Virus record (IMG/VR): IMGVR_UViG_3300042559_000515
Location: 1 to 64,000 of that record
Direction: 5' to 3' (one strand)
DNA: 64,000 nucleotides
Source: a virus
Position numbers and translations under genes: made by a program. Below are positions 26,938-59,296 of the stretch, piece after piece. The notes below the pieces were generated by a model. That model saw only the letters and a list, made by a program, of their open reading frames with translations, searched no databases and was not told the DNA's origin. The first letter of the stretch is position 1; every line of letters starts with the position of its first letter.

Positions 26938-30220
<3,283 letters not shown>

Positions 30221-41218: not shown

Positions 41219-41904
41219 GCGCCCATTTGGCACATATTTCATACAGAAAATGATGCATGAACATGCACTACAACTGGGGCTATGGAATCAGGGGCACACA
41301 CAAGGGGGCGAGGGGGGCAGGTATTCCCCACACCTCCGATGCCCAAGGCACAATCCCGATGCCCCAGCACACCCCTGAGCCTCCAGCACCTACTCCCCCC
41401 TCAGACCACACAGAAGAGCCTTCAGAGCGTTCAAATACCCTCTCTGCCACCTGCATACCCTCCCCCTGTCTTCCCCCTATCAGAGGCTCTCCCAGCACGG
41501 TTTGGGCGCCCTTTTCCTCACCCCCCTATCCCTCGGAGCCTTGCCATATATGGGCAAAAAAAGAATCAGAAAAAACATTTGAAAACTATTGACATTCCGA
41601 AATGCCCTCTGCGAGACTGGGGGTGAGGGGCGCTTCGGCGCCTCGCTCTTTGAAAACTGAAGATTCCGCCGTGTTCTTGATGGCTGGGCTTTGCCCATTC
41701 CATAGCGCCCTGTTCCTGTCCTGCCCTAAGTCCTTGGGCATTGCAGTTCAGATTCAGTTGCCTCCACGGTTCATGGAATCCAGTCAGTCCCTTGAAAATT
41801 GAAGATTCTCCGCCAGCAGAGCAAACGCTCGCCACGCTGGTTTACGGTCAGAGCACTTGACCCAGTTCATACGAAGCCCTTGGCAGGGTGAGAATCAATC
41901 AGAT

Positions 41905-42345
41905 ATGCGCCACGGTCGGCAAGGGGTGGCAACCCCTCCCCAGTCAGACCGTGGTTATTGCGAACTAGCAGGTTCTGTGAACCTCCTCGGCTCCGCTAAG
42001 TCCACTCGGTGGATACTGGCGGATGACCCACTGACGCTAAGTCCAACGCTGACACTGCATTGTGTTGACCCCATAGTGGGTCACTTGCTCCAAGGAGCCT
42101 TTGCAGGACAGGCAATGGTAATGCGAATCGGATGGAGGGTTCCGTTCATCAAGGTCACCACTTCGGTGTGTGCGCCAATTACGAACGAGGGCAGGTGTCA
42201 AGGGATTGGCACGACACACAGAACAGAGGCTCTGCGGAGAAGGACTCAACTAGCACCGACTACACGGCACACGGTTCGCAACCCACACCAGTTGACGCTC
42301 AAGGTCAGTTGGAAAGCATCAGCACATGGTGTGGGGTCGCAACGG
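41905..42345 (+). ncRNA. Candidate large structured RNA / leader
   Basis: Dense nested helices, several of 9 bp, with a UUCG loop; lies upstream of the first SD-led gene. Confidence 0.5.
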
Positions 42346-42422
42346 TGTCGGGGGGTTCGCCCCTCGGCTCCGTGCCACTGGCACATCGCAAGGTGTGCTG
42401 GTGGGACGGATAATCCGTTCCC
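42343..42422 (+). ncRNA. Three-hairpin element, copy A
   Basis: 13-bp UUCG hairpin, 13-bp GCAA hairpin and short hairpin, just before SD. Confidence 0.7.
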
Positions 42423-42444
42423 TCTACCAAAGGAGCACCACACA

Positions 42445-42906
42445 ATGGCACTTAATGTTGATTGGGGAAACACCCCCGTTTATAAAGAGTTCCTCGCCAC
42501 CACCCCTGATGGCGACTTCACTGACTCCAACGGCTACCCACGCTTCCCTATCGGTGACCTCATGTTCAGCATGATGATTGTCCAGCAGGGTCGCATCTCT
42601 GAGAAGAACGCCCACAAGGTGTTCGCTCGCCTGTCGCTTTACCTTGAAGCGATGGTCGGTGGTTCATTCTCACGAGTGTGGGATGGCGAGAAGGTCATTG
42701 AAGAACGACTCAGCCCTGAGCACATCAAGCGTGCGATGGGCTTGCGAGTCAATGTGTCCGATGAGTCCGATACCAGTTGGGTGCAGTACTTCTTGCGTCT
42801 TGTAAAGCGTGAGAATGCTGAGCCTGTTGCTGGCATGACCGAATGGACAACGGCGAATATCAAGCGCCACCTTGCGAAGTACGAGGTTGACTACCTCGCC
42901 TCGTAA
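42445..42906 (+). CDS. Hypothetical early protein
   Basis: AAGGAGCACCACACA-ATG; start placed at MALNVD rather than 41857. Confidence 0.8.
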   Translation: MALNVDWGNTPVYKEFLATTPDGDFTDSNGYPRFPIGDLMFSMMIVQQGRISEKNAHKVFARLSLYLEAMVGGSFSRVWDGEKVIEERLSPEHIKRAMGLRVNVSDESDTSWVQYFLRLVKRENAEPVAGMTEWTTANIKRHLAKYEVDYLAS

Positions 42907-42924
42907 GTCACACCCACTACCAAA

Positions 42925-42996
42925 GGCATCAGCGCTTCGGCGCTGGTGTCCTCACTGTGCATCGGCTTCGGTCGGTGCATGGTGAGGACATTGTCC
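42925..42996 (+). ncRNA. Three-hairpin element, copy B
   Basis: 11-bp cUUCGg, 20-bp cUUCGg (GTCCTCAC/GTGAGGAC) and GGAC-ATT-GTCC. Confidence 0.75.
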
Positions 42997-43018
42997 ACAA
43001 CACAAGGAGCACCACACA

Positions 43019-43384
43019 ATGAAAGCAACCGACCCTGAGTTTGCAGGAATGCACCACGATGAAATCTTGAAGCACTTTGCAGGCATCAAGGCAAGCATCA
43101 AGAAAATGGGGGGCGTGACAGTCCCTCCAACACGCCAGCAGGTTGAGTGGGACAGCGTCCCTCTCATTCACGAAGACGCAACAATCGGTCATGTTGTCAA
43201 AGACATCCGAATTGACAGCGTTGGTCATGTCGGCATCGTTGATGATGTGAGCGTCATCACGAAGCGTGACGGACGCACAGCAGTTGTTGTGTCGTTCCGA
43301 TTCGTCAACCACACAACGCTCAACCAATCCCGTACCGACATCAGAACTCGCAAGGTTGAGTTCATCCTCAACAACAACCAATAG
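43019..43384 (+). CDS. Hypothetical early protein
   Basis: Same AAGGAGCACCACACA-ATG leader as 42445. Confidence 0.8.
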   Translation: MKATDPEFAGMHHDEILKHFAGIKASIKKMGGVTVPPTRQQVEWDSVPLIHEDATIGHVVKDIRIDSVGHVGIVDDVSVITKRDGRTAVVVSFRFVNHTTLNQSRTDIRTRKVEFILNNNQ

Positions 43385-43392
43385 GAGCACCA

Positions 43393-43677
43393 ATGACAAC
43401 ACCTAAGACATACCCAACCTTCACTGACCCTGACGGCGTCCTACAGCCGTTCAAGGGTATGACCACGGGGCGCCATGCGAAGCGTGTCGTCTCGTACTGG
43501 CGCAAGGATGCGAGTGAGCCGTGGAAACGCTTCGGTAACTCCGTGAGCGTTGACGCCATGGACAAGCGCATGCGTCACATTGAAAAGCAAGGATGGAAGA
43601 TTCGTTACTCCATCATTGACATGGACAACCAACTCACCATCAAACAAATTGAAACCATCAACAAGGAGAACAAATAA
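43393..43677 (+). CDS. Hypothetical early protein
   Basis: AGGAG SD. Confidence 0.75.
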   Translation: MTTPKTYPTFTDPDGVLQPFKGMTTGRHAKRVVSYWRKDASEPWKRFGNSVSVDAMDKRMRHIEKQGWKIRYSIIDMDNQLTIKQIETINKENK

Positions 43678-44006
43678 TGAGCACATCAACCAACACACGC
43701 CACCCACTGACCATCTCGTACACCCTCATGGTGAGCGAGGAATTGCTGGACAACCTCAAGTCGCATGACGGCACCCGTTACTGGGTGCTGGGCGAATACG
43801 AAGTCCACACTGACTTTGAGGGTGAGACCTACATCACCGACAACGGTCACCGCTTCAACTACGACACTGAGACCGCACTGCGTGGCATCGCACTGTGGAT
43901 TCAGAACGGTGGTGACTGGGACGAACTCAAAGACTTGTCCACCGACCACTACGACCACGATGCCATTTGGCAGTACGGGTTCTTCGGTGAACTTGTCTAC
44001 GGCTAA
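43677..44006 (+). CDS. Hypothetical early protein
   Basis: AAGGAG SD; C-terminal D.DAIWQYGFFGELVYG. Confidence 0.8.
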   Translation: MSTSTNTRHPLTISYTLMVSEELLDNLKSHDGTRYWVLGEYEVHTDFEGETYITDNGHRFNYDTETALRGIALWIQNGGDWDELKDLSTDHYDHDAIWQYGFFGELVYG

Positions 44007-44052
44007 CCCATTGACCACCTACAACAACAACACCAACCAACAAGGAGCAATC

Positions 44053-44997
44053 ATGACCACATCAGTAACCGAGGTGCAGAGCACCCTTTCAACCTTCCAG
44101 CCTCGTGACCGCAAGTACGACTTGCGCACCGCCGAGGGCAAGTACTTCAAGCGCCTCAACTCGTACAACAGTGAGTACACAGTGACCACTGGCGTTGTCA
44201 TCGTCCCTGAGGAGCGTGGCTACGGCGACACTGCCACCGTCATTGATGTGACCTACGATGCCATCCATCTTGTGCGCACCGTTGATGTTGACAGCGACCT
44301 CGTTGAGACCTACCTCAAGGGCAAGTTGCAGTACGACTGGCAGTCTCGTGACCGCAAGAAGGCATCGTTCATTGTCGTCAACGAGGCGCTCTTCCAAGAG
44401 AGTTGGTCGGGCGGTCGCTGGGTGCATGTTGACTACTCCGTGTGGTCGCTTGAAGAGGGTGGCGAGGTAGTTGCCACCACTGGCACCAGCGACACTGACC
44501 ATTACGAGACCTCACGCATTGTTGCTAAGGCGCTCGGTAATCGTGTGTTTGAGATGAACTCGGACATCCAAGCCAATGAAGCACGCAAGGCACAGGCTGA
44601 CGAGCATGCACGCAAGGTTGCCGATGTCTTGTCAGCGTTCGTGCCGTCCTACTCCTACGAGCGTTCGCTTGCCGAAGCCACCAAGTTCATTGAGCGTGGT
44701 GTGAAGGAGTCAGAGGGTGAGAACAGTCACTGGCACAATCATGTGCATGTCGCCATTGACATTGAGGTGATGAAACTCTGTAAGCGATATGTACAGATTC
44801 TCGGTGCGACCACCGACACTGTCCGCATTGCGTTCAACTCGTACAGCGGTGACATCAAGGTCGTTGATGAGCACATGGCATACGCCACGGTCATCGCAGA
44901 GCGCACTGGTGGTGGCTGGTCAAGCAACGACTTCTCAGGAGCGTTGCTGGGTCAGGTACTTCACCGCTTCACCAAGATTGTCTGCCAGCACATCTAG
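44053..44997 (+). CDS. Hypothetical early protein
   Basis: AAGGAG SD before MTTSVTE. Confidence 0.8.
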   Translation: MTTSVTEVQSTLSTFQPRDRKYDLRTAEGKYFKRLNSYNSEYTVTTGVVIVPEERGYGDTATVIDVTYDAIHLVRTVDVDSDLVETYLKGKLQYDWQSRDRKKASFIVVNEALFQESWSGGRWVHVDYSVWSLEEGGEVVATTGTSDTDHYETSRIVAKALGNRVFEMNSDIQANEARKAQADEHARKVADVLSAFVPSYSYERSLAEATKFIERGVKESEGENSHWHNHVHVAIDIEVMKLCKRYVQILGATTDTVRIAFNSYSGDIKVVDEHMAYATVIAERTGGGWSSNDFSGALLGQVLHRFTKIVCQHI

Positions 44998-45016
44998 TCA
45001 CGACAACATCCCCCAA

Positions 45017-45103
45017 GGCATCACAGGCTCCCCCAGCCTGTGGTGTCCTCACAGGACATCGGCACTCCCCCAAGTGTCGGTGTCTTGTGAGGGCATACAG
45101 CCC
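45017..45103 (+). ncRNA. Three-hairpin element, copy C
   Basis: 13-bp, 23-bp (GTCCTCAC/GTGAGGGC) and GGGC-ATACA-GCCC hairpins. Confidence 0.75.
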
Positions 45104-45129
45104 AGCACCACTATCAACAGGAGAATCCA

Positions 45130-45675
45130 ATGGGCGTTTATCAATACGCAATTACAAAGACCAAGCGAATCAAGGGACTGTCCGATGTCTTCGGTGACAT
45201 CGGTGTGGTTGAGTTCCGCTACAGGTACTCGTGGTCACCGAACGAGAAGTTTGAGAAGTACTGCGCTCGCCTTGACGCCAATATTGAGCGCAAGTGGGCA
45301 GGCACTGAGTTGCCGATTCTTGTGACCGACAAGAAGGGCAGGGGCTTGTCAGTGTGGGTCGGTGACAGTGCGAACTGGTGTGACGGTGACAGCAAGGGTG
45401 GCGAGATGCCAATCGGCTCATCGCAGGGCTGGGATGCCTTGTGGCACTGGGCAGAACGCAATGGTCGTTTGGAGATTCCACTGTGGTTGATGACCGCTGG
45501 CGACTTTGAGCACAGCCAAGAGATTCCATTCGTCCCGACTACTGAGAAGGCATACCGAGAACTGGTGGACGCCTGCTCCACTCTCCGCCTCCGTCAGCGT
45601 GGCGACAGCAACGCTCAGCCACAGATTCCGAACAACCGCTACTGGGTCAACAATGACCTCTACACATACCTTTAA
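45130..45675 (+). CDS. Hypothetical early protein
   Basis: AGGAG SD. Confidence 0.75.
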   Translation: MGVYQYAITKTKRIKGLSDVFGDIGVVEFRYRYSWSPNEKFEKYCARLDANIERKWAGTELPILVTDKKGRGLSVWVGDSANWCDGDSKGGEMPIGSSQGWDALWHWAERNGRLEIPLWLMTAGDFEHSQEIPFVPTTEKAYRELVDACSTLRLRQRGDSNAQPQIPNNRYWVNNDLYTYL

Positions 45676-45685
45676 GGAGAACCCA

Positions 45686-45982
45686 ATGACCATCAAGCAA
45701 TACACAGTCACAATGTCCAGCACGCACTTCGTGCTTGCCGAATCCATATCGCAAGCGGAGAGCATCGTGTACGAGGCACTGCTTCGTCTCTCCAAGGTGG
45801 ACGAGCGTGTCCCCGACAGTGAGGTGGACTGGTTCCACGCAGTCACCCTTGAGGACGGGCACTACTCAACCATCGTGCGAGACGGTGACGAGATGAGTGA
45901 CTACGACAGGAAAGTCCAACGATTGAAGCGAGTGCGAGAACTCGTTGAGAAGGTCTGCAACGAAGAGATGGAGAAGAACTAA
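45686..45982 (+). CDS. Hypothetical early protein
   Basis: AAGGAG SD before MTIKQY. Confidence 0.7.
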   Translation: MTIKQYTVTMSSTHFVLAESISQAESIVYEALLRLSKVDERVPDSEVDWFHAVTLEDGHYSTIVRDGDEMSDYDRKVQRLKRVRELVEKVCNEEMEKN

Positions 45983-46284
45983 TGACCACAATCACAGTTA
46001 CATGGAAGGCGTTTGCGGACTCACTGACCTTTAAGGAGAAGGTCACATCGGCAACCATTAAGACCAACCGCATTCAAGGTGATGGCATCGCCATCGCTGA
46101 GGTGGTGTTCCGTGACACCAACCTCTACCAAGGCGTGCTGTGGGACTTGCTGGAGCCTGTCCTGCCTGAGAACCGAACACACACAGCACTGAGTGTTGGT
46201 GACGAGGTGACCGTTGACGGTCGCACTTACCAATGCGCCAGTATCGGCTGGGTGGAACTCACCTTTGACGCAGTCAACCAATAA
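45982..46284 (+). CDS. YodL-like protein
   Basis: HTALSVGDEV.VDG..Y.C.SIGW. Confidence 0.55.
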   Translation: MTTITVTWKAFADSLTFKEKVTSATIKTNRIQGDGIAIAEVVFRDTNLYQGVLWDLLEPVLPENRTHTALSVGDEVTVDGRTYQCASIGWVELTFDAVNQ

Positions 46285-46314
46285 ACAACCAGTTCTAGTA
46301 AAGGAGAACAAAAA

Positions 46315-47034
46315 ATGTCAGCCACCACCATCACCCCCCGTCAGCAGTCATTTATTCGCTCACTCTTAGAGGAGCGTCTTGATGTACTGGAAATCACCAA
46401 CCTTGACGAGTACATCGTCTCGGTCGGTCTCAACGCACTCACAGCGAACTCTGCGAGCAAACTCATTGAGCATCTCAAGTCGGTGCCTGTGGGCAAGAAG
46501 TCAGAGCATGCGCACTTGCCCGAAGGTCGGGTCATCGTCAACAAGTTCGCCAAGGAGTGCACGCTCTGTGGTGGCTTGGTGGACAGCGGTGCTGGTCATG
46601 CAGTGCAGACTGCTAATGGCTGGCGGACATTCCATGCGATGGACAAGTGCAGTGCACCAGCCGATGCTCCACGCATCACGGTTGAGTCCAAGCGTGCGTA
46701 TCGCTGTGACGATGGCACTGTCGCTATCGCCTACACCACACAGAACGGTCGCATTGCGATGCGCCGTCTTGTGATTCACGAGGACAACAAGGGTTCTCTT
46801 GAGTACTGGAAGGGCGGTGTCGCCATCGTGAGCGCCACTGGCTCGCTCCTTACGCAGGAGCAGGCATCCGAACTCGGCAAGGTGTACGGGTTCTGCATCT
46901 GCTGTGGCAAGGACTTGAGTGAAGACCAGTCGCTTGCTGTCGGGTATGGCAGGACTTGTGCTGGCAACAATGAGTGGTGGTACCCATCACCCAGTGAAGC
47001 ACGAGAGATTCTCAACCGACCAGTCAGTATCTAG
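46315..47034 (+). CDS. DUF6011-like zinc-binding protein
   Basis: G..YGFCICCGKDL....SLAVGYG..CA; additional CxxC...H..C. Confidence 0.7.
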   Translation: MSATTITPRQQSFIRSLLEERLDVLEITNLDEYIVSVGLNALTANSASKLIEHLKSVPVGKKSEHAHLPEGRVIVNKFAKECTLCGGLVDSGAGHAVQTANGWRTFHAMDKCSAPADAPRITVESKRAYRCDDGTVAIAYTTQNGRIAMRRLVIHEDNKGSLEYWKGGVAIVSATGSLLTQEQASELGKVYGFCICCGKDLSEDQSLAVGYGRTCAGNNEWWYPSPSEAREILNRPVSI

Positions 47035-47051
47035 TTCAACCCATTAGTTGA

Positions 47052-47135
47052 GGGGACAGCACGAGCAACTGTTCGTGCCGTCCTCACTATCTATTCGCAA
47101 TGTGTGAGTAGGTAGTGAGGGCGATATCATCGCCC
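47052..47135 (+). ncRNA. Three-hairpin element, copy D
   Basis: ~14-bp, 21-bp (GTCCTCAC/GTGAGGGC) and GGGCGAT-ATC-ATCGCCC hairpins. Confidence 0.75.
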
Positions 47136-47166
47136 CTGAGCACCCAACATAACCAAGGAGTATTCC

Positions 47167-48705
47167 ATGTCCCACCGTTCCGCACTTGATGCCCTGCTGT
47201 CCTCAGCAGTGCGTGTCCCCAAACCCATTGATGTCTGCCCCGAACTCACAGCGCTGTCGGGTGCACATGACTATGACCTCGGCTTTGACCTGTCACTGCC
47301 ATTACTCCCGTACCAGCGTGCTGGTGTGGCGTATGCGCTCAAGCAACGCCGTGTCATCCTCGGTGACGAGATGGGCTTGGGCAAGACCCCACAACTCATT
47401 GCCGTGGCTCTCAAGGCTGTTGAGGACGGTCACCGTGCACTCATCGTGGTGCCACCGTCACTGCGCCTCAACTGGGACAGAGAGATTGCCAAGTTCACCT
47501 CTCGCCGTCTCACCGTGGAGATTGCTGAGGGCACCACGCCCTACGCACTGCGCAAGTCTGATGTCGTCATCATCGGTGACGCCAGTGTGGTCGGCTGGGC
47601 GCCTGCGCTCAACCGTCTCAACTTCGGTGCACTGTTAGTTGACGAGGCACACCGCTTCAAGAACCCCAAGGCAAAGCGCACCATCGCATTGCAGGGCATC
47701 GCTCGTGGCATTGATGCTGACGGGTATGTCGTGCTCGCTTCGGGTACGCCAGCAACCAACCGCCCCGTTGAGTTGGTCGCACTGCTTGACACCATCGGTC
47801 GCCTTGACCCTGTGTTCGGTTCTGCTGGTTCATTCAAGTGGCGCTACTGCGACCCGATTCGCAATGCGTTCGGCTGGACATTCAACGGTTCAACCAACAG
47901 TGCCGAGTTGCACGACAAGTTGCGTGGCACTTGCTACATCCGCCGTAAGAAGGCTGATGTGCTCACCGAGTTGCCAGCCAAGCGCCGTGCTCAGGTTGCT
48001 ATCGCTCTGACCGATGTGGAGTTGCGTGAGTACCTCCGCATTGAGTCTGACTTCCTCATGTGGGTGTACGGCAAGGGTGGTCGTGAGGCTGTCATGCGTG
48101 TGTCTCGTGCCGAGGCAATCACGCAGTTGACCGCACTGCGACAGGAGATGGCAAAGGTCAAGGTCAAGCACGCCATTGAGCACATTGAGTCCATCGTTGA
48201 GGGTGACCAGCCAGTGGTCATCTTCGGACATCACCGTGCGGTGCTTGAGTCCATCATCGCTGAGTGTGAGACACGCTCTGCTGAAGACCCACGATGGAAT
48301 GTCGTGAGTGTTCTCGGTGGCAAGTCCGATGCACAAAAGCAACAAGCAGTGGACGACTTCCAGTCGGGTCGTGCGAGCGTGTTCGTGGGCAACTACACCT
48401 CCGCTGGTGTCGGTCTCACACTCACTCGTGCCAACCAGTGGGTGAGCGTGGAGTTACCGTGGACACCTGCTGAACTACAGCAAGCCGAAGACCGATGCCA
48501 CAGATTCACGCAAACAGAATCTGTGACTTGCTGGCACCTGACTGGTGCTCGTGCCAATGGTCAGTTGACCATTGACGACCGACTCTTCGGTCTGCTCAAC
48601 AGCAAGGCGGAGGTTCTCTCCGCAGTGCTTGACGGCAACGCCGAAGACCTCGGTGCTGAGGCTGGCTCACTGCTCGCCTCGCTCCTTGGTGACTGGGTCG
48701 GCTAA
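47167..48705 (+). CDS. SNF2/HARP-like helicase
   Basis: DEMGLGKT, DEAH, SGTP, GVGLTL, QAEDRCHR. Confidence 0.92.
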   Translation: MSHRSALDALLSSAVRVPKPIDVCPELTALSGAHDYDLGFDLSLPLLPYQRAGVAYALKQRRVILGDEMGLGKTPQLIAVALKAVEDGHRALIVVPPSLRLNWDREIAKFTSRRLTVEIAEGTTPYALRKSDVVIIGDASVVGWAPALNRLNFGALLVDEAHRFKNPKAKRTIALQGIARGIDADGYVVLASGTPATNRPVELVALLDTIGRLDPVFGSAGSFKWRYCDPIRNAFGWTFNGSTNSAELHDKLRGTCYIRRKKADVLTELPAKRRAQVAIALTDVELREYLRIESDFLMWVYGKGGREAVMRVSRAEAITQLTALRQEMAKVKVKHAIEHIESIVEGDQPVVIFGHHRAVLESIIAECETRSAEDPRWNVVSVLGGKSDAQKQQAVDDFQSGRASVFVGNYTSAGVGLTLTRANQWVSVELPWTPAELQQAEDRCHRFTQTESVTCWHLTGARANGQLTIDDRLFGLLNSKAEVLSAVLDGNAEDLGAEAGSLLASLLGDWVG

Positions 48706-48724
48706 CACAATCTGAGGTGGTGCT

Positions 48725-48811
48725 CACGGGCGTCACGAGGTGCGAGCCTCGTGGCGTGCCGTGGTCATTGTGGGGTCGGGACACTCCGCAGTGACCACGG
48801 GACGCAAGTCC
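48725..48811 (+). ncRNA. Three-hairpin element, copy E
   Basis: GCGA-capped hairpin, 18-bp hairpin and GGAC-GCAA-GTCC. Confidence 0.7.
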
Positions 48812-48842
48812 AAACAGCACCAACACAACAAGGAATTAAACA

Positions 48843-49211
48843 ATGAAGACACAAGCAATCATCACTATCAACCATCCCGACAACCTGTCAGCGAACTGGG
48901 TTATCGCTGATGTCATTGACCCATTCATCGCTGATGTCAACACTGGTGGCAACGATGAATGGAATCTCGCCTTGGCGTTGTCACTGACCGAGACGCAACT
49001 GCGTGACAAGGCATTGCGCAGTGCGCTGTTGCTGGTTCTCAGTGACTTCCCTGCGGACATGAGCAACGAGTGGATTCTTGACGGCGTCCTCAATGATGAC
49101 GAGCGCATCATTGTGTGGGAGCCGTTCTCCATCGTCAACTGGGACAAAGAAGAACTGGTCGCTCACATTGAGCAGACAGCGGACACCATCTACAACACAT
49201 ACTTTCAATAA
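48843..49211 (+). CDS. Hypothetical early protein
   Basis: AAGGA SD. Confidence 0.75.
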   Translation: MKTQAIITINHPDNLSANWVIADVIDPFIADVNTGGNDEWNLALALSLTETQLRDKALRSALLLVLSDFPADMSNEWILDGVLNDDERIIVWEPFSIVNWDKEELVAHIEQTADTIYNTYFQ

Positions 49212-50045: not shown

Positions 50046-50269
50046 TGCAGAACATCAAGTTCGTTCAGAGTGTGACCATCTCGGTCACCTTTGACATGTC
50101 CTTTCCCAGCGACTGGACACTCCAGCAGATTCTGGAGAGCATCAAGGACACCACCACTGATATCAGTGCACATGTCCTGCCCGAAACACTTCCACAAGGT
50201 GCAGTAAGTAACAGCACCATTGTGGATGACATCATTATCAACCACACCGCCATACAGGAGAACAACTAA
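50045..50269 (+). CDS. Hypothetical early protein
   Basis: GAGGAG SD; TAATG coupling. Confidence 0.65.
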   Translation: MQNIKFVQSVTISVTFDMSFPSDWTLQQILESIKDTTTDISAHVLPETLPQGAVSNSTIVDDIIINHTAIQENN

Positions 50270-50682
50270 TGACCGCAACAACCGCCAGTGACTTCCAAGT
50301 CACGCTCGCATACATCCAACAGAACATTGATGCCATCGCTGAGTTTGCTCAGCAGTTCCTCAATGAGAACTACTTTGAAGACGATGATGTCTTCCACTCA
50401 TACGGAGACCGTGTTGACCTCAACTTCATCCGAGATGAAGATGACAACAAGTGGAGGTGCTTTGCATACCCAGTGGTCAACGGTGACCCCTCCTATGACT
50501 ACGAGGTAGCCATCCCAGTGGACACCGATACCTACAAGGTTGTGCGGTTCTACAAAGACATCAGCCGTGCCAACAAGGTCATCCTGACTGGACTTACCTT
50601 GCAGGACGCAAAGGAACACTGCAAGCGTGATGACACGCACAGTGACGACTGGTTTGACGGATACGAAAAGGAAAGCAAGTAA
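50269..50682 (+). CDS. Hypothetical early protein
   Basis: AGGAG SD; C-terminal YKVVRFY...GLTL..A..HC...WFDGY. Confidence 0.75.
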   Translation: MTATTASDFQVTLAYIQQNIDAIAEFAQQFLNENYFEDDDVFHSYGDRVDLNFIRDEDDNKWRCFAYPVVNGDPSYDYEVAIPVDTDTYKVVRFYKDISRANKVILTGLTLQDAKEHCKRDDTHSDDWFDGYEKESK

Positions 50683-50873
50683 TGGAAACACAAGTCAGCA
50701 AGCAATCACTGGACACCATCGTTGATGCTCTGTTCCTCTACATGAAGTGGAACGAGGGATTCTCAAAGGTGGCTATCACACAGAACGACTACGAAGCATC
50801 AGCACGACACATCATCAACGCAAACAACGCAGAGCGAGCAATCGCAGAACTCAAACAACAAGGAGACAAATAA
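50682..50873 (+). CDS. Hypothetical early protein
   Basis: TAATG coupling. Confidence 0.7.
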   Translation: METQVSKQSLDTIVDALFLYMKWNEGFSKVAITQNDYEASARHIINANNAERAIAELKQQGDK

Positions 50874-51046
50874 TGAACCCTGAGAAATACCATTGGTTCG
50901 CAGAAGACGGTTCCTATGGCAGTGGTGTCACCCTCGTGGTGGACACCAGCAACTGGACGGATGAAGACTGGCGAGACATTGAAGACACATCAGACAGCGA
51001 GCGCTCCACAGTGGCGCTTGAGATAACCAAGAAGAGAAAGGGGTAG
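50873..51046 (+). CDS. Hypothetical early protein
   Basis: AAGGAG SD before MNPEKY. Confidence 0.7.
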   Translation: MNPEKYHWFAEDGSYGSGVTLVVDTSNWTDEDWRDIEDTSDSERSTVALEITKKRKG

Positions 51047-55229: not shown

Positions 55230-55278
55230 GGAAAGACCCTCACCTTAATCGGTGGGGGTCTTTTCCTTTTCCTTTTCC
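55230..55278 (+). terminator. Strong intrinsic (likely bidirectional) terminator
   Basis: GGAAAGACCCTCACC-TTAATC-GGTGGGGGTCTTTTCC plus T-runs at the convergence of the plus and minus blocks. Confidence 0.8.
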
Positions 55279-57859: not shown

Positions 57860-59296
57860 TCAAGACTCTTCTGACAGGTCAATGATTTCTGCGTACATGG
57901 CATCGGTTGCCTCTGGACTCATCCCACCATTGGGCAGTTGGCGAGCCTGCTCCCCTGCCTTGGCTCCGAACAAACGAGACAGGACACCGCTGGTGCCACG
58001 AGCCTCAACCTCAAACCGTAGGGTGTCTCGGCTGTCAGAGATGTTCTTCATGCGCTCCACCATGTTGAAGACTCTGTCCATTTCTGTTGACAGCGTGGTG
58101 TCAATTCCTTGACCTTCTAGTTCTTCAGCGAACCTAGCGAACATCACACGACCCACCTGCATCTCTACGAGAGCACGCATAGCGGCGTTTAATTGGTCTT
58201 TGGTACGAATCTCAATGGGCAAAGAAAACGCACACTCACTATTCTCTTGAAATTGAGGACAACGACTTGCCAAGTAACAATGATTACATTGCCTCAAAGG
58301 GTTGGCGTTGTAACGAAGAACATTGACCTGTTCTGGGTCAATTTCTATTGATTCTCCTTGGTTATCTGTGTGTTGAGTACCTATAGAAGTAACCGTCTCA
58401 ACACCCATAACTGGGAGTAATCTTTTTTCGCTTTCGTGCCTCTTTTCAGGTACCTGTGGAACAATGTTTGTACCCCTCGGTGCCACAGATACCGTATTAT
58501 CGGTATCCCCTGAAATCATTATGATTTGGTTGTCATCAGTGAGTGTGAACTCTTCTTCGTCATCAACATTCATAAGGTCATAGCCCCCAAAGTTTTTAGT
58601 TTCCCATGCTCTCCACGATTGGATAGCGAGGTGTGCCACAGCGTTTACTTCATCTTCAAGGACTGCGTTGTAATCCACACCAAGACGCTGAATGTCGTTG
58701 CGGTGTCTCTTGCGTGCGCTCTCTTTTTGTTGTGCTGGGTAACGGTGTAGTGCGTGTCCATCCCACACCTGAGTCTCTCCGTAACGCAGTGCGCTAGACC
58801 ATGAGACGACTACAACGGACTCCCAGTTGATGCGACCAATTACATCAGGCTTAGAGGTCATACCGATTAATTGCGTTGACCAGCGTGTAGCAATCTGCCC
58901 GATGCGTGAGATTGTCTTACCTGTGATGGCTTTGTCTGAGATAGCCACACGACCATACTTCTGACACAGCCACTGGAGACGCTCTAGGTCATCGGGGTCA
59001 TTCCAAATGGGCACATACTTCTCACCCATCCATGACCCATCATAATCTGGTCGTCCAATTACATAAGTCAAATTATCTATGTGCTCACGAATAAATGAGT
59101 CATAACGAGCCAAGTCTTCATCATTCTCTGAGACATAGAGGATGATGTCATGCCCCTGATACACCGTTGCGAGGTCTAACTCTTTGCGCTTAGGAACGGC
59201 GTAATGGGTCAGGTTGATACCGAATCGGGTAACACCTGCGCTCAACAACATAGACCTGTATGAGCCTTTCTCGGCTCCTCCAAAGAATACTTTCAC
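57860..59296 (-). CDS. Large protein: possible TGT-like barrel plus Cys4 cluster and helical C-terminus
   Basis: SW.S..RYGETQVWDG; CNHC....RCP.F.....C; function uncertain. Confidence 0.5.
   Translation of the reverse strand: MKVFFGGAEKGSYRSMLLSAGVTRFGINLTHYAVPKRKELDLATVYQGHDIILYVSENDEDLARYDSFIREHIDNLTYVIGRPDYDGSWMGEKYVPIWNDPDDLERLQWLCQKYGRVAISDKAITGKTISRIGQIATRWSTQLIGMTSKPDVIGRINWESVVVVSWSSALRYGETQVWDGHALHRYPAQQKESARKRHRNDIQRLGVDYNAVLEDEVNAVAHLAIQSWRAWETKNFGGYDLMNVDDEEEFTLTDDNQIIMISGDTDNTVSVAPRGTNIVPQVPEKRHESEKRLLPVMGVETVTSIGTQHTDNQGESIEIDPEQVNVLRYNANPLRQCNHCYLASRCPQFQENSECAFSLPIEIRTKDQLNAAMRALVEMQVGRVMFARFAEELEGQGIDTTLSTEMDRVFNMVERMKNISDSRDTLRFEVEARGTSGVLSRLFGAKAGEQARQLPNGGMSPEATDAMYAEIIDLSEES

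Follow-up and report, generated by a model that had tools for sequence, protein, structure and literature searches.

The DNA analysed here, which we call the window, comprises bases 1-64000 of the 83,630-nt virus contig IMGVR_UViG_3300042559_000515 of IMG/VR, rated 89% complete. Since the contig encodes a tail sheath, a portal, a large terminase and a collagen-like tail fibre, alongside a queuine-tRNA-ribosyltransferase-like protein, the virus is a myovirus. Leftward genes extend up to 40627, and a rightward block runs from about 41.6 kb to 55.1 kb. The five large gaps in the first 6.5 kb of this block are filled by five copies, A to E, of an element made of three adjoining hairpins. As an RNA family the element is undescribed, though its kind is known, and its structure is well supported. 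A preliminary description made from the sequence alone had reported five such copies before ribosome-binding sites, and refolding bears out their number, places and three-hairpin form:

42339-42425, plus strand: element A, the divergent first copy, at the end of the leader; hairpin 1 at 42342-42373 (13 bp, bulged), hairpin 2 at 42375-42404 (13 bp), hairpin 3 at 42405-42419; the next start is at 42445.
42920-43007, plus strand: element B, between a stop at 42906 and a start at 43019; hairpin 1 at 42930-42945 (6 bp, extendable to about 11), hairpin 2 at 42946-42991 (21 bp, UUCG loop), hairpin 3 at 42986-42996, overlapping the base of hairpin 2.
45012-45112, plus strand: element C, between a stop at 44997 and a start at 45130; hairpin 1 at 45017-45047 (13 bp), hairpin 2 at 45049-45090 (18 bp; full form 45045-45094), hairpin 3 at 45091-45103.
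47050-47140, plus strand: element D, between a stop at 47034 and a start at 47167, that of an SNF2 helicase; hairpin 1 at 47059-47078 (8 bp), hairpin 2 at 47079-47123 (21 bp), hairpin 3 at 47119-47135, overlapping the base of hairpin 2.
48724-48821, plus strand: element E, between a stop at 48705 and a start at 48843; hairpin 1 at 48734-48753 (8 bp), hairpin 2 at 48754-48805 (22 bp, two bulges), hairpin 3 at 48800-48811, with a GCAA loop and overlapping the base of hairpin 2.

Hairpins 1 and 2 abut without a linker, and hairpin 2 is uninterrupted in B, C and D and broken in E by just two single-base bulges. Its base comes in two subtypes, one in B, C and D and the other in A and E, and UUCG and GNRA loops are present, both as first described. 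For every copy, none of 200 dinucleotide shuffles folds as well as the real element, with z-scores of -4.2, -5.0, -6.9, -7.5 and -7.1 for A to E; the element helices reach -50 to -71 kcal for 110-130 nt. When the whole contig is folded in sliding 120-nt segments, the five loci give -58 to -67 kcal/mol on the plus strand against a contig mean of -29.2 (sd 7.4) and are its strongest plus-strand folds, and at these loci the plus strand folds 8-20 kcal better than the minus strand. A separate region outside the window, G000 65881-66040 (L057 1881-2040), is about 70% GC and holds the contig's strongest minus-strand fold, about -62 kcal per 120 nt.

A covariance model (R1) was trained on B, C and D together with four copies from a relative, L002, whose helicase is 84% identical to the window's and which carries five clear copies and a disrupted A-type copy. 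Run with filters off on the 64-kb window, the model returns exactly five plus-strand matches with E<0.01, namely A to E, and the next hit stands at E=0.09. The training copies B, C and D score 85.5, 78.4 and 84.1 bits; of the copies outside training, element E scores 29.9 bits (E=5e-7) and element A 18 bits (E=0.0017), and the L002 orthologue of element E, which carries compensatory changes, reaches 46.9 bits. The remaining 19.6 kb of the contig gave the model no match. In the disrupted A-type copy (L002 1270-1345), hairpin 2 is replaced by a different, larger nested hairpin with a 13-bp outer stem, and hairpins 1 and 3 remain. The sole weak off-target hit, at 12 bits, falls on nested long palindromes at 27292-27557 (arms up to 28 nt; one of 16 nt perfect) inside the gene for the 1115-aa collagen-like tail fibre.

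When IMG/VR was scanned with two patterns and the hits were passed to the model, 34 further loci with matches were added. The first pattern, GTCCTCAC..GTGAGGRC, hit at least 117 stretches, mostly by chance, and 8 of the 80 loci listed hold model matches. A joint search of 36 uncultured-phage sources gave at least 150 matches, with 80 distinct sequences among those listed. Most copies belong to a second clade of phages, with genomes of 95-97 kb and a helicase about 51% identical to the window's, and in this clade copies lie both before and after the helicase gene, as D and E do in the window. With copies on both sides of an SNF2 helicase that has itself diverged so far, the elements are conserved at the same sites over a long divergence. 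In four genomes of this clade rated 99-100% complete, all sense matches fall within one 4-6 kb stretch, the counts being lower bounds with one known copy missed. The elements lie at the start of the early operon, and in near-complete genomes they occupy this one stretch and do not mark early genes in general.

The model found no match at loci L003-L056, whose helicases are 23-49% identical (best E=0.62), and no comparable fold was seen upstream of those helicases; it likewise gave 0 matches on Streptomyces phage BRock, and blastn of B and of a clade-2 copy against deposited phages gave none. A pattern scan of bacterial genomes produced at least 120 single hits, and on the 80 bacterial loci listed the model gave one weak match (26 bits, 71% GC) and no clue to the host. 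Consistent with the claim of a new motif, Rfam 15 at gathering thresholds has no match in the 64-kb window; with E relaxed up to 5 over 41500-49000, the sole hit is mir-187, whose 24.6 bits fall short of its threshold of 58. We found no description of the element family in the main texts of the literature. Ribozymes occur at gene boundaries of phage operons, and the multi-helix fold seen at these boundaries could in principle be a self-cleaving or otherwise catalytic RNA. This is extremely unlikely, given that no Rfam ribozyme matched even at the relaxed threshold and that the conserved nucleotides of the family sit inside helices, with no conserved unpaired core.

The preliminary description also held that pairing is kept and that the elements function as plus-strand RNA, and strong compensatory covariation now supports this. 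Compensatory double changes are seen at 18 of 30 predicted pairs when seven sequences are compared, and at 27 of the 30 once 45 matches (38 of them distinct) are aligned by fitting to the model, where 94.3% of cells are paired against 31-47% when the partner is slid. As such an alignment leans towards the model, the count was repeated on an alignment of 31 representatives made with MAFFT only. There 23 of the 26 pairs that RNAalifold predicts have compensatory changes, and 98.1% of cells are paired against 31-48% when slid; none of 500 shuffles attains the observed values on any measure. Because G-U outnumbers A-C by 360 to 30 (12:1) among 2342 stem cells, the sense RNA is the strand under selection, and minus-strand images score 20-27 bits against 78-88 bits. 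Judged by these substitution patterns, A to E belong to a family selected as plus-strand RNA.

The family combines constant geometry with a few near-invariant pairs. In all 80 distinct rows, 17-21 of the 21 positions of hairpin 2 are paired, around a loop of 3 to about 18 nt. Hairpin 1 is capped by interchangeable UNCG or GNRA tetraloops, and the loops are not conserved; U-G, C-G and A-U pairs at its base (UCA/UGG) are present in 36-38 of 38 rows. Hairpin 2 carries near-invariant pairs in CUCA/UGAG and CA/UG boxes, and mostly wobble (G-U) pairs at three fixed positions. Elements A and E lack the conserved boxes and yet have the same fold. These features raise the question of an operator, to which an RNA-binding protein with sequence specificity, encoded by phage or host, would bind and so co-regulate translation or decay of the cassette group. 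The near-invariant pairs of both hairpins, the semi-conserved wobbles at fixed positions and the restriction of the elements to one 4-6 kb gene group in complete genomes all speak for such a protein, whereas the variable loops and the persistence of the fold in A and E without the boxes speak against it. Among the genes neighbouring the elements, which are ORFans, a DUF6011 protein and the SNF2 helicase, no candidate RNA-binding protein was identified, and on balance we regard an operator as distinctly improbable.

The position of the elements between genes is as regular as their structure, and agrees with the placement before ribosome-binding sites first described: they lie between a stop codon and the next start led by a Shine-Dalgarno (SD) sequence. 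Each of the 47 copies examined points the same way as the open reading frames (ORFs) beside it. A script found an SD-led start 8-32 nt downstream in 46 of the 47; in the 47th it picked an internal TTG, and the start in the ORF list lies about 22 nt downstream. Of the 47, 44 have an upstream ORF whose end lies within 0-20 nt of the element or within hairpin 1, or, where the helicase precedes, at a distance of about 75 nt. In clade-2 loci (L061, L109, L129, L136 and others) the SD sequence itself sits in a small covarying hairpin of the ACCUGAGGAGGU type at most gene starts. We rejected this hairpin as a part of the element: although 56 of 60 starts preceded by an element have it, so do 75 of 147 candidate starts elsewhere, a rough set with some false starts in it.

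The same stop-to-start position, together with the very stable helices, would suit an uncleaved stabiliser and insulator of the REP/BIME kind, which would block 3' exonucleases and shield the next ribosome-binding site from the ribosomes or the folding of the previous cassette. The interchangeable UNCG and GNRA loops of hairpin 1 also point to stability rather than recognition. Mere stability, however, needs no constant length of hairpin 2, no conserved pairs, no fixed G-U positions and no hairpin 3 arm that copies the base of hairpin 2, and we consider this explanation improbable.

Two features that frame the rightward block bear on whether the elements act on transcription:

41590-42338, plus strand: non-coding leader, about 750 nt without genes, before element A; it is context and lies outside the repeat family.
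55230-55265, plus strand: canonical, U-tailed intrinsic terminator, a 15-bp stem followed by CTTTTCCTTT, which closes the rightward block.

The elements could be transcription attenuators that lack a U-tail, at each of which polymerase would pause or partly terminate after the cassette, giving a gradient of expression or timed read-through, the latter possibly by polymerase modified at the leader. GC-rich, stable, clustered hairpins directly after stop codons are what such attenuators would look like, and the nearest cultured relatives by terminase are Streptomyces phages (46% identity). The leader carries a TTGACA hexamer after an A-tract and a UUCG hairpin, and a 19-nt word, CTTTGAAAACTGAAGATTC, occurs in it at 41648 and again, with one mismatch, at 41790; two hits were seen in 1 of 100 shuffles. 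This word, twice repeated after a hairpin, presumably resembles the boxA of rrn operons and would fit polymerase modification. We found no literature linking it with 'boxA'; the word was not seen at locus L136 of clade 2, and L002, where the leader is conserved just in part, retains it weakly. Hairpin clusters without U or A trails have been proposed as terminators from RNA-seq of 13 genomes, in the account given in PMC8355165.

Against attenuation stands the complete lack of U-tracts, which upholds the first description on this point. A tract of at least 6 U in any 8 nt within 40 nt after hairpin 2 occurs in 0 of 90 copies, and 5 U in 2 of 90, whereas the same operon ends in a canonical U-tailed terminator; because that terminator closes the rightward block, U-tailed terminators are in use by the phage. 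Mycobacterial RNA polymerase, moreover, is described as requiring a U-tract at intrinsic terminators (PMC3993855). None of A to E was called terminator-like or, under a consensus of sigma-70 type only, promoter-like; under the same consensus, L136 2000-12600 holds 2 promoter-like sites against 7.6 expected, none of them at an element. Attenuation would also leave unexplained the fixed 21-bp length of hairpin 2, the conserved boxes, the wobble positions and the overlap of hairpin 3. We therefore view attenuators as a doubtful but conceivable explanation.

One correction concerns element A, which lies inside a 349-codon open frame (41857-42906) that spans the leader and the element and runs into a real gene starting at 42445. 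The upstream part of this frame is non-coding, because GC content by codon position is flat there and because, in L002, an in-frame stop precedes the orthologous ATG at a distance of 51 nt.

Adjacent stems of the element had been said to share bases and so to compete, and the larger set of copies argues for this at one of the two junctions. Because the 3' arm of hairpin 3 repeats the 5' base of hairpin 2, hairpin 3 and the lowest four or five pairs of hairpin 2 are mutually exclusive. The arm also covaries with the 3' end of hairpin 2: their duplex has an energy of -7.4 kcal when both come from one copy and of -4.75 when they come from different copies, and the expected number of pairs, 1.86, falls to 0.46 on shuffling. 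In predicted ensembles of 90 distinct copies the base of hairpin 2 is about half formed, with 2.6 of 5 pairs; 24 copies favour hairpin 3, 40 the full hairpin 2, and 25 are mixed. The stems are thus predicted to compete at this junction. Many minimum-energy folds also contain a closing stem between the 5' flank and the region after hairpin 3, and 40 of the 90 copies look closed in the ensemble. A closing stem or three-way junction was dropped as a selected feature, as its 4.85 expected pairs compare with 4.63 and 5.07 for shuffled flanks and it exceeds its own shuffles in just 45 of 90 copies.

Comparison of relatives adds a second property that the preliminary description had not mentioned, as it had not mentioned the confinement to one 4-6 kb stretch. 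Homology between the window and L002 is lost where B, C and E end on their 3' side. The L002 copy B' is 95% identical to B, yet the gene after it is the one that comes after C in the window; C and C' share 79% identity between flanking genes that are unrelated on both sides; and after E', L002 continues with a homologue of 50256-50876. We also compared the window with DNA contigs from four lake runs, and in a metagenome contig from lake run X13 position 43002 is linked to 45128, so that B directly precedes the gene that otherwise comes after C and 2125 nt are skipped; the junction holds 11 other letters, and the arrangement is that of L002. The elements are thus points at which relatives exchange gene cassettes, and since the element is the sole sequence shared between cassettes, it is the place where they do so by recombination.

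These breaks could mean that the element is mainly a selfish or recombinational module of DNA that moves cassettes, either as a promoterless counterpart of the promoter-early stem-loops (PeSLs) of T4-type phages or as a single-strand site of attC type. The broken synteny, the preservation of C between unrelated genes and the lake contig all fit, and PeSLs are reported to mediate such shuffling in T4-type phages (PMC2839356, PMC4122927). However, the predominance of G-U over A-C (12:1) and the changes that compensate each other within pairs reflect selection on a helix of the sense strand and not on a duplex DNA site. The elements contain no sigma-70-like promoter, hairpin 2 has none of the extrahelical bases of an attC-like site, and tyrosine recombinase (PF00589) is absent from all five genomes searched, four of them 99-100% complete, where the control matched 14 of 14. 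Recombination at any shared sequence is, besides, expected as a by-product, and a role mainly at the level of DNA is very unlikely.

Lake-water metagenomes of many studies contain the DNA of this phage, and the lineage is one of abundant, uncultured lake phages that probably infect actinobacteria. Megablast of 42200-49000 gave no match, and none of 50,697 deposited phage genomes is a near relative. Judged by terminase, BRock is among the cultured phages that come nearest, and for the SNF2 helicase the best cultured relative is just 34% identical, with none close. A 478-aa protein encoded at 57860-59296 on the minus strand matches the PHROG 'queuine tRNA-ribosyltransferase' (E=1e-35), which hints at 7-deazaguanine modification of the phage DNA. 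For a T7-like RNA polymerase (PF00940) there was no match, but the control likewise matched nowhere.

Taken together, these data confirm what the preliminary description observed and partly support its interpretation of the elements as processing, stabilising or switch motifs. We propose, with a probability of roughly 40%, that A to E are sites of mRNA punctuation, at which hairpin 2 would be cut by the RNase III of the host and hairpins 1 and 3 would cap the products. By analogy with known sites this reading fits best, because the element is sense RNA, has a fixed helix of two turns, lies between a stop codon and a ribosome-binding site, and has neither a terminator tail nor a promoter. We infer that the elements are transcribed within one polycistronic early mRNA, as cis-acting structured RNA. 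Hairpin 2, a near-perfect helix of 17-22 bp stacked directly on hairpin 1, would serve as the substrate of a double-strand-specific endonuclease. RNase III of the host is the likely enzyme because the phage encodes none: RNase III and double-stranded RNA-binding domains (PF14622, PF00035) are absent from the 83.6-kb contig, which is 89% complete, and the controls match in 8 and 9 of 14 genomes.

After the cut, both halves of the lower stem of hairpin 2 would re-pair locally. The 5' half would stay beside hairpin 1, which would become the 3'-terminal hairpin of the upstream message, and the 3' half would pair with the downstream arm and form hairpin 3, the 5'-terminal hairpin of the downstream message. 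Capping by hairpin 3 from the freed half would give the overlap of the stems a purpose, and the operon would be split into cassettes, each separately stable and separately translated. RNase III products are described as retaining terminal hairpins as determinants of stability (PMC3867540). The same account puts an idealised E. coli RNase III substrate at 22 bp and cellular ones at about 20 bp or less (PMC3867540). Hairpin 2 has the length of two helical turns (about 20-22 bp), with 18-22 bp in B to E and 13 bp in A, and the intergenic sense-strand position of a T7-type RNase III site, predicted from sequence, is found in 47 of 47 copies.

Several points nevertheless weigh against punctuation by RNase III. 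Classical T7 sites carry an internal loop, and the internal loop or bulge of such a scissile site is not found in hairpin 2 of the A-E family; its near-perfect helices would presumably be cut on both strands, unlike the T7 sites. The conserved pairs and fixed G-U positions exceed the known needs of RNase III and suggest a sequence-specific protein as the better match, and A and E do without the conserved UCA/UGG, CUCA/UGAG and CA/UG boxes altogether. The elements lie within one 4-6 kb stretch while other intergenic gaps of the same operons have none, and because of this confinement processing is not a general need of the early mRNA. Extension of hairpin 1 was not seen to exceed chance, its duplex having -1.93 within a copy and -2.13 across copies, and so is not established; the closing stem formed by the flanks pairs no better than after the flanks are shuffled; and that RNase III of the host makes the cut is an assumption.

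Some of these points would be accommodated by a more specific proposal, which we put forward only tentatively and hold to be unlikely, that the element is a bistable, self-capping processing site that refolds into two terminal hairpins after hairpin 2 is cut or after it is unwound by a terminating ribosome. The lower stem of hairpin 2 would then match both the downstream arm, as hairpin 3, and, less surely, the 5' flank, as the extension of hairpin 1, and a dedicated factor, rather than generic RNase III, would recognise the element by its fixed G-U positions and boxes.

Punctuation by processing, whether or not it involves such refolding, invites comparison first with the RNase III signals of T7 and T3 early mRNA (R0.3-R1.3) and the sites of SP82 and SPO1. 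These likewise are repeated, mutually similar intergenic hairpins of the sense strand before the next ribosome-binding site, with a helix of about two turns. The elements differ from them in having no sequence or Rfam relation to them and three adjoining hairpins in place of one. Compared with the T7 sites in particular, hairpin 2 is near-perfect and without an internal loop, and has conserved boxes and fixed wobbles in addition. If our reading is correct, they would represent a second, independently evolved answer to the problem that T7 solves with its RNase III sites, that of splitting a long early message, and the designed refolding step, if true, is not described for T7-type sites.

The put RNAs of phage HK022 are another cis-acting relative in form: two adjoining covarying stem-loops of about 70 nt in the nascent early transcript, found once per early operon just after the promoter and acting on RNA polymerase. 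The elements, in contrast, occur in 5-8 copies spread between genes, an arrangement that processive antitermination would not require. The early region of phiC31 is said, in work attributed to Ingham et al. 1995, to contain intrinsic terminators without tails. Such tail-less terminators and the hairpin clusters described in PMC8355165 likewise consist of stable GC-rich hairpins after stop codons and have no U-tail, whereas the elements have a fixed geometry throughout the family, conserved pairs, and an operon that ends in a U-tailed terminator.

Among actinophages, the extended start-associated sequences (ESAS) of Cluster K mycobacteriophages are described as inverted repeats with a variable spacer just upstream of some non-structural gene starts, conserved for each gene family across relatives (PMC3203893). 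As defined there, each ESAS consists of a single imperfect inverted repeat of 17 bp, which has a sequence consensus and goes together with a 13-bp word, the start-associated sequence (SAS) (PMC3203893). In the elements, by contrast, two to three helices change in sequence while compensation preserves their pairing, and no SAS-like word is present.

A further parallel, in genomic behaviour, is to the PeSLs, which are reported likewise to lie between the stop of an ORFan and the next SD sequence, repeated many times in a plastic early region (PMC2839356, PMC4122927), and to be points of gene exchange, loss and gain among relatives (PMC2839356), as the elements are. PeSLs are defined in those accounts by a strong sigma-70 promoter and one terminator stem-loop; the elements have no promoter-like site, several covarying helices and no U-tract. 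The link between element and cassette exchange carries the idea behind PeSLs, in which modular shuffling is driven by regulatory sequence held in common, to phages other than the T4 type and to sequences other than promoters. With at least 150 copies, 80 distinct sequences and a ready covariance model, the family is defined well enough to be added to RNA family databases and to the annotation of early regions, and as compact, portable separators of genes on one mRNA, its members may serve as insulator parts.

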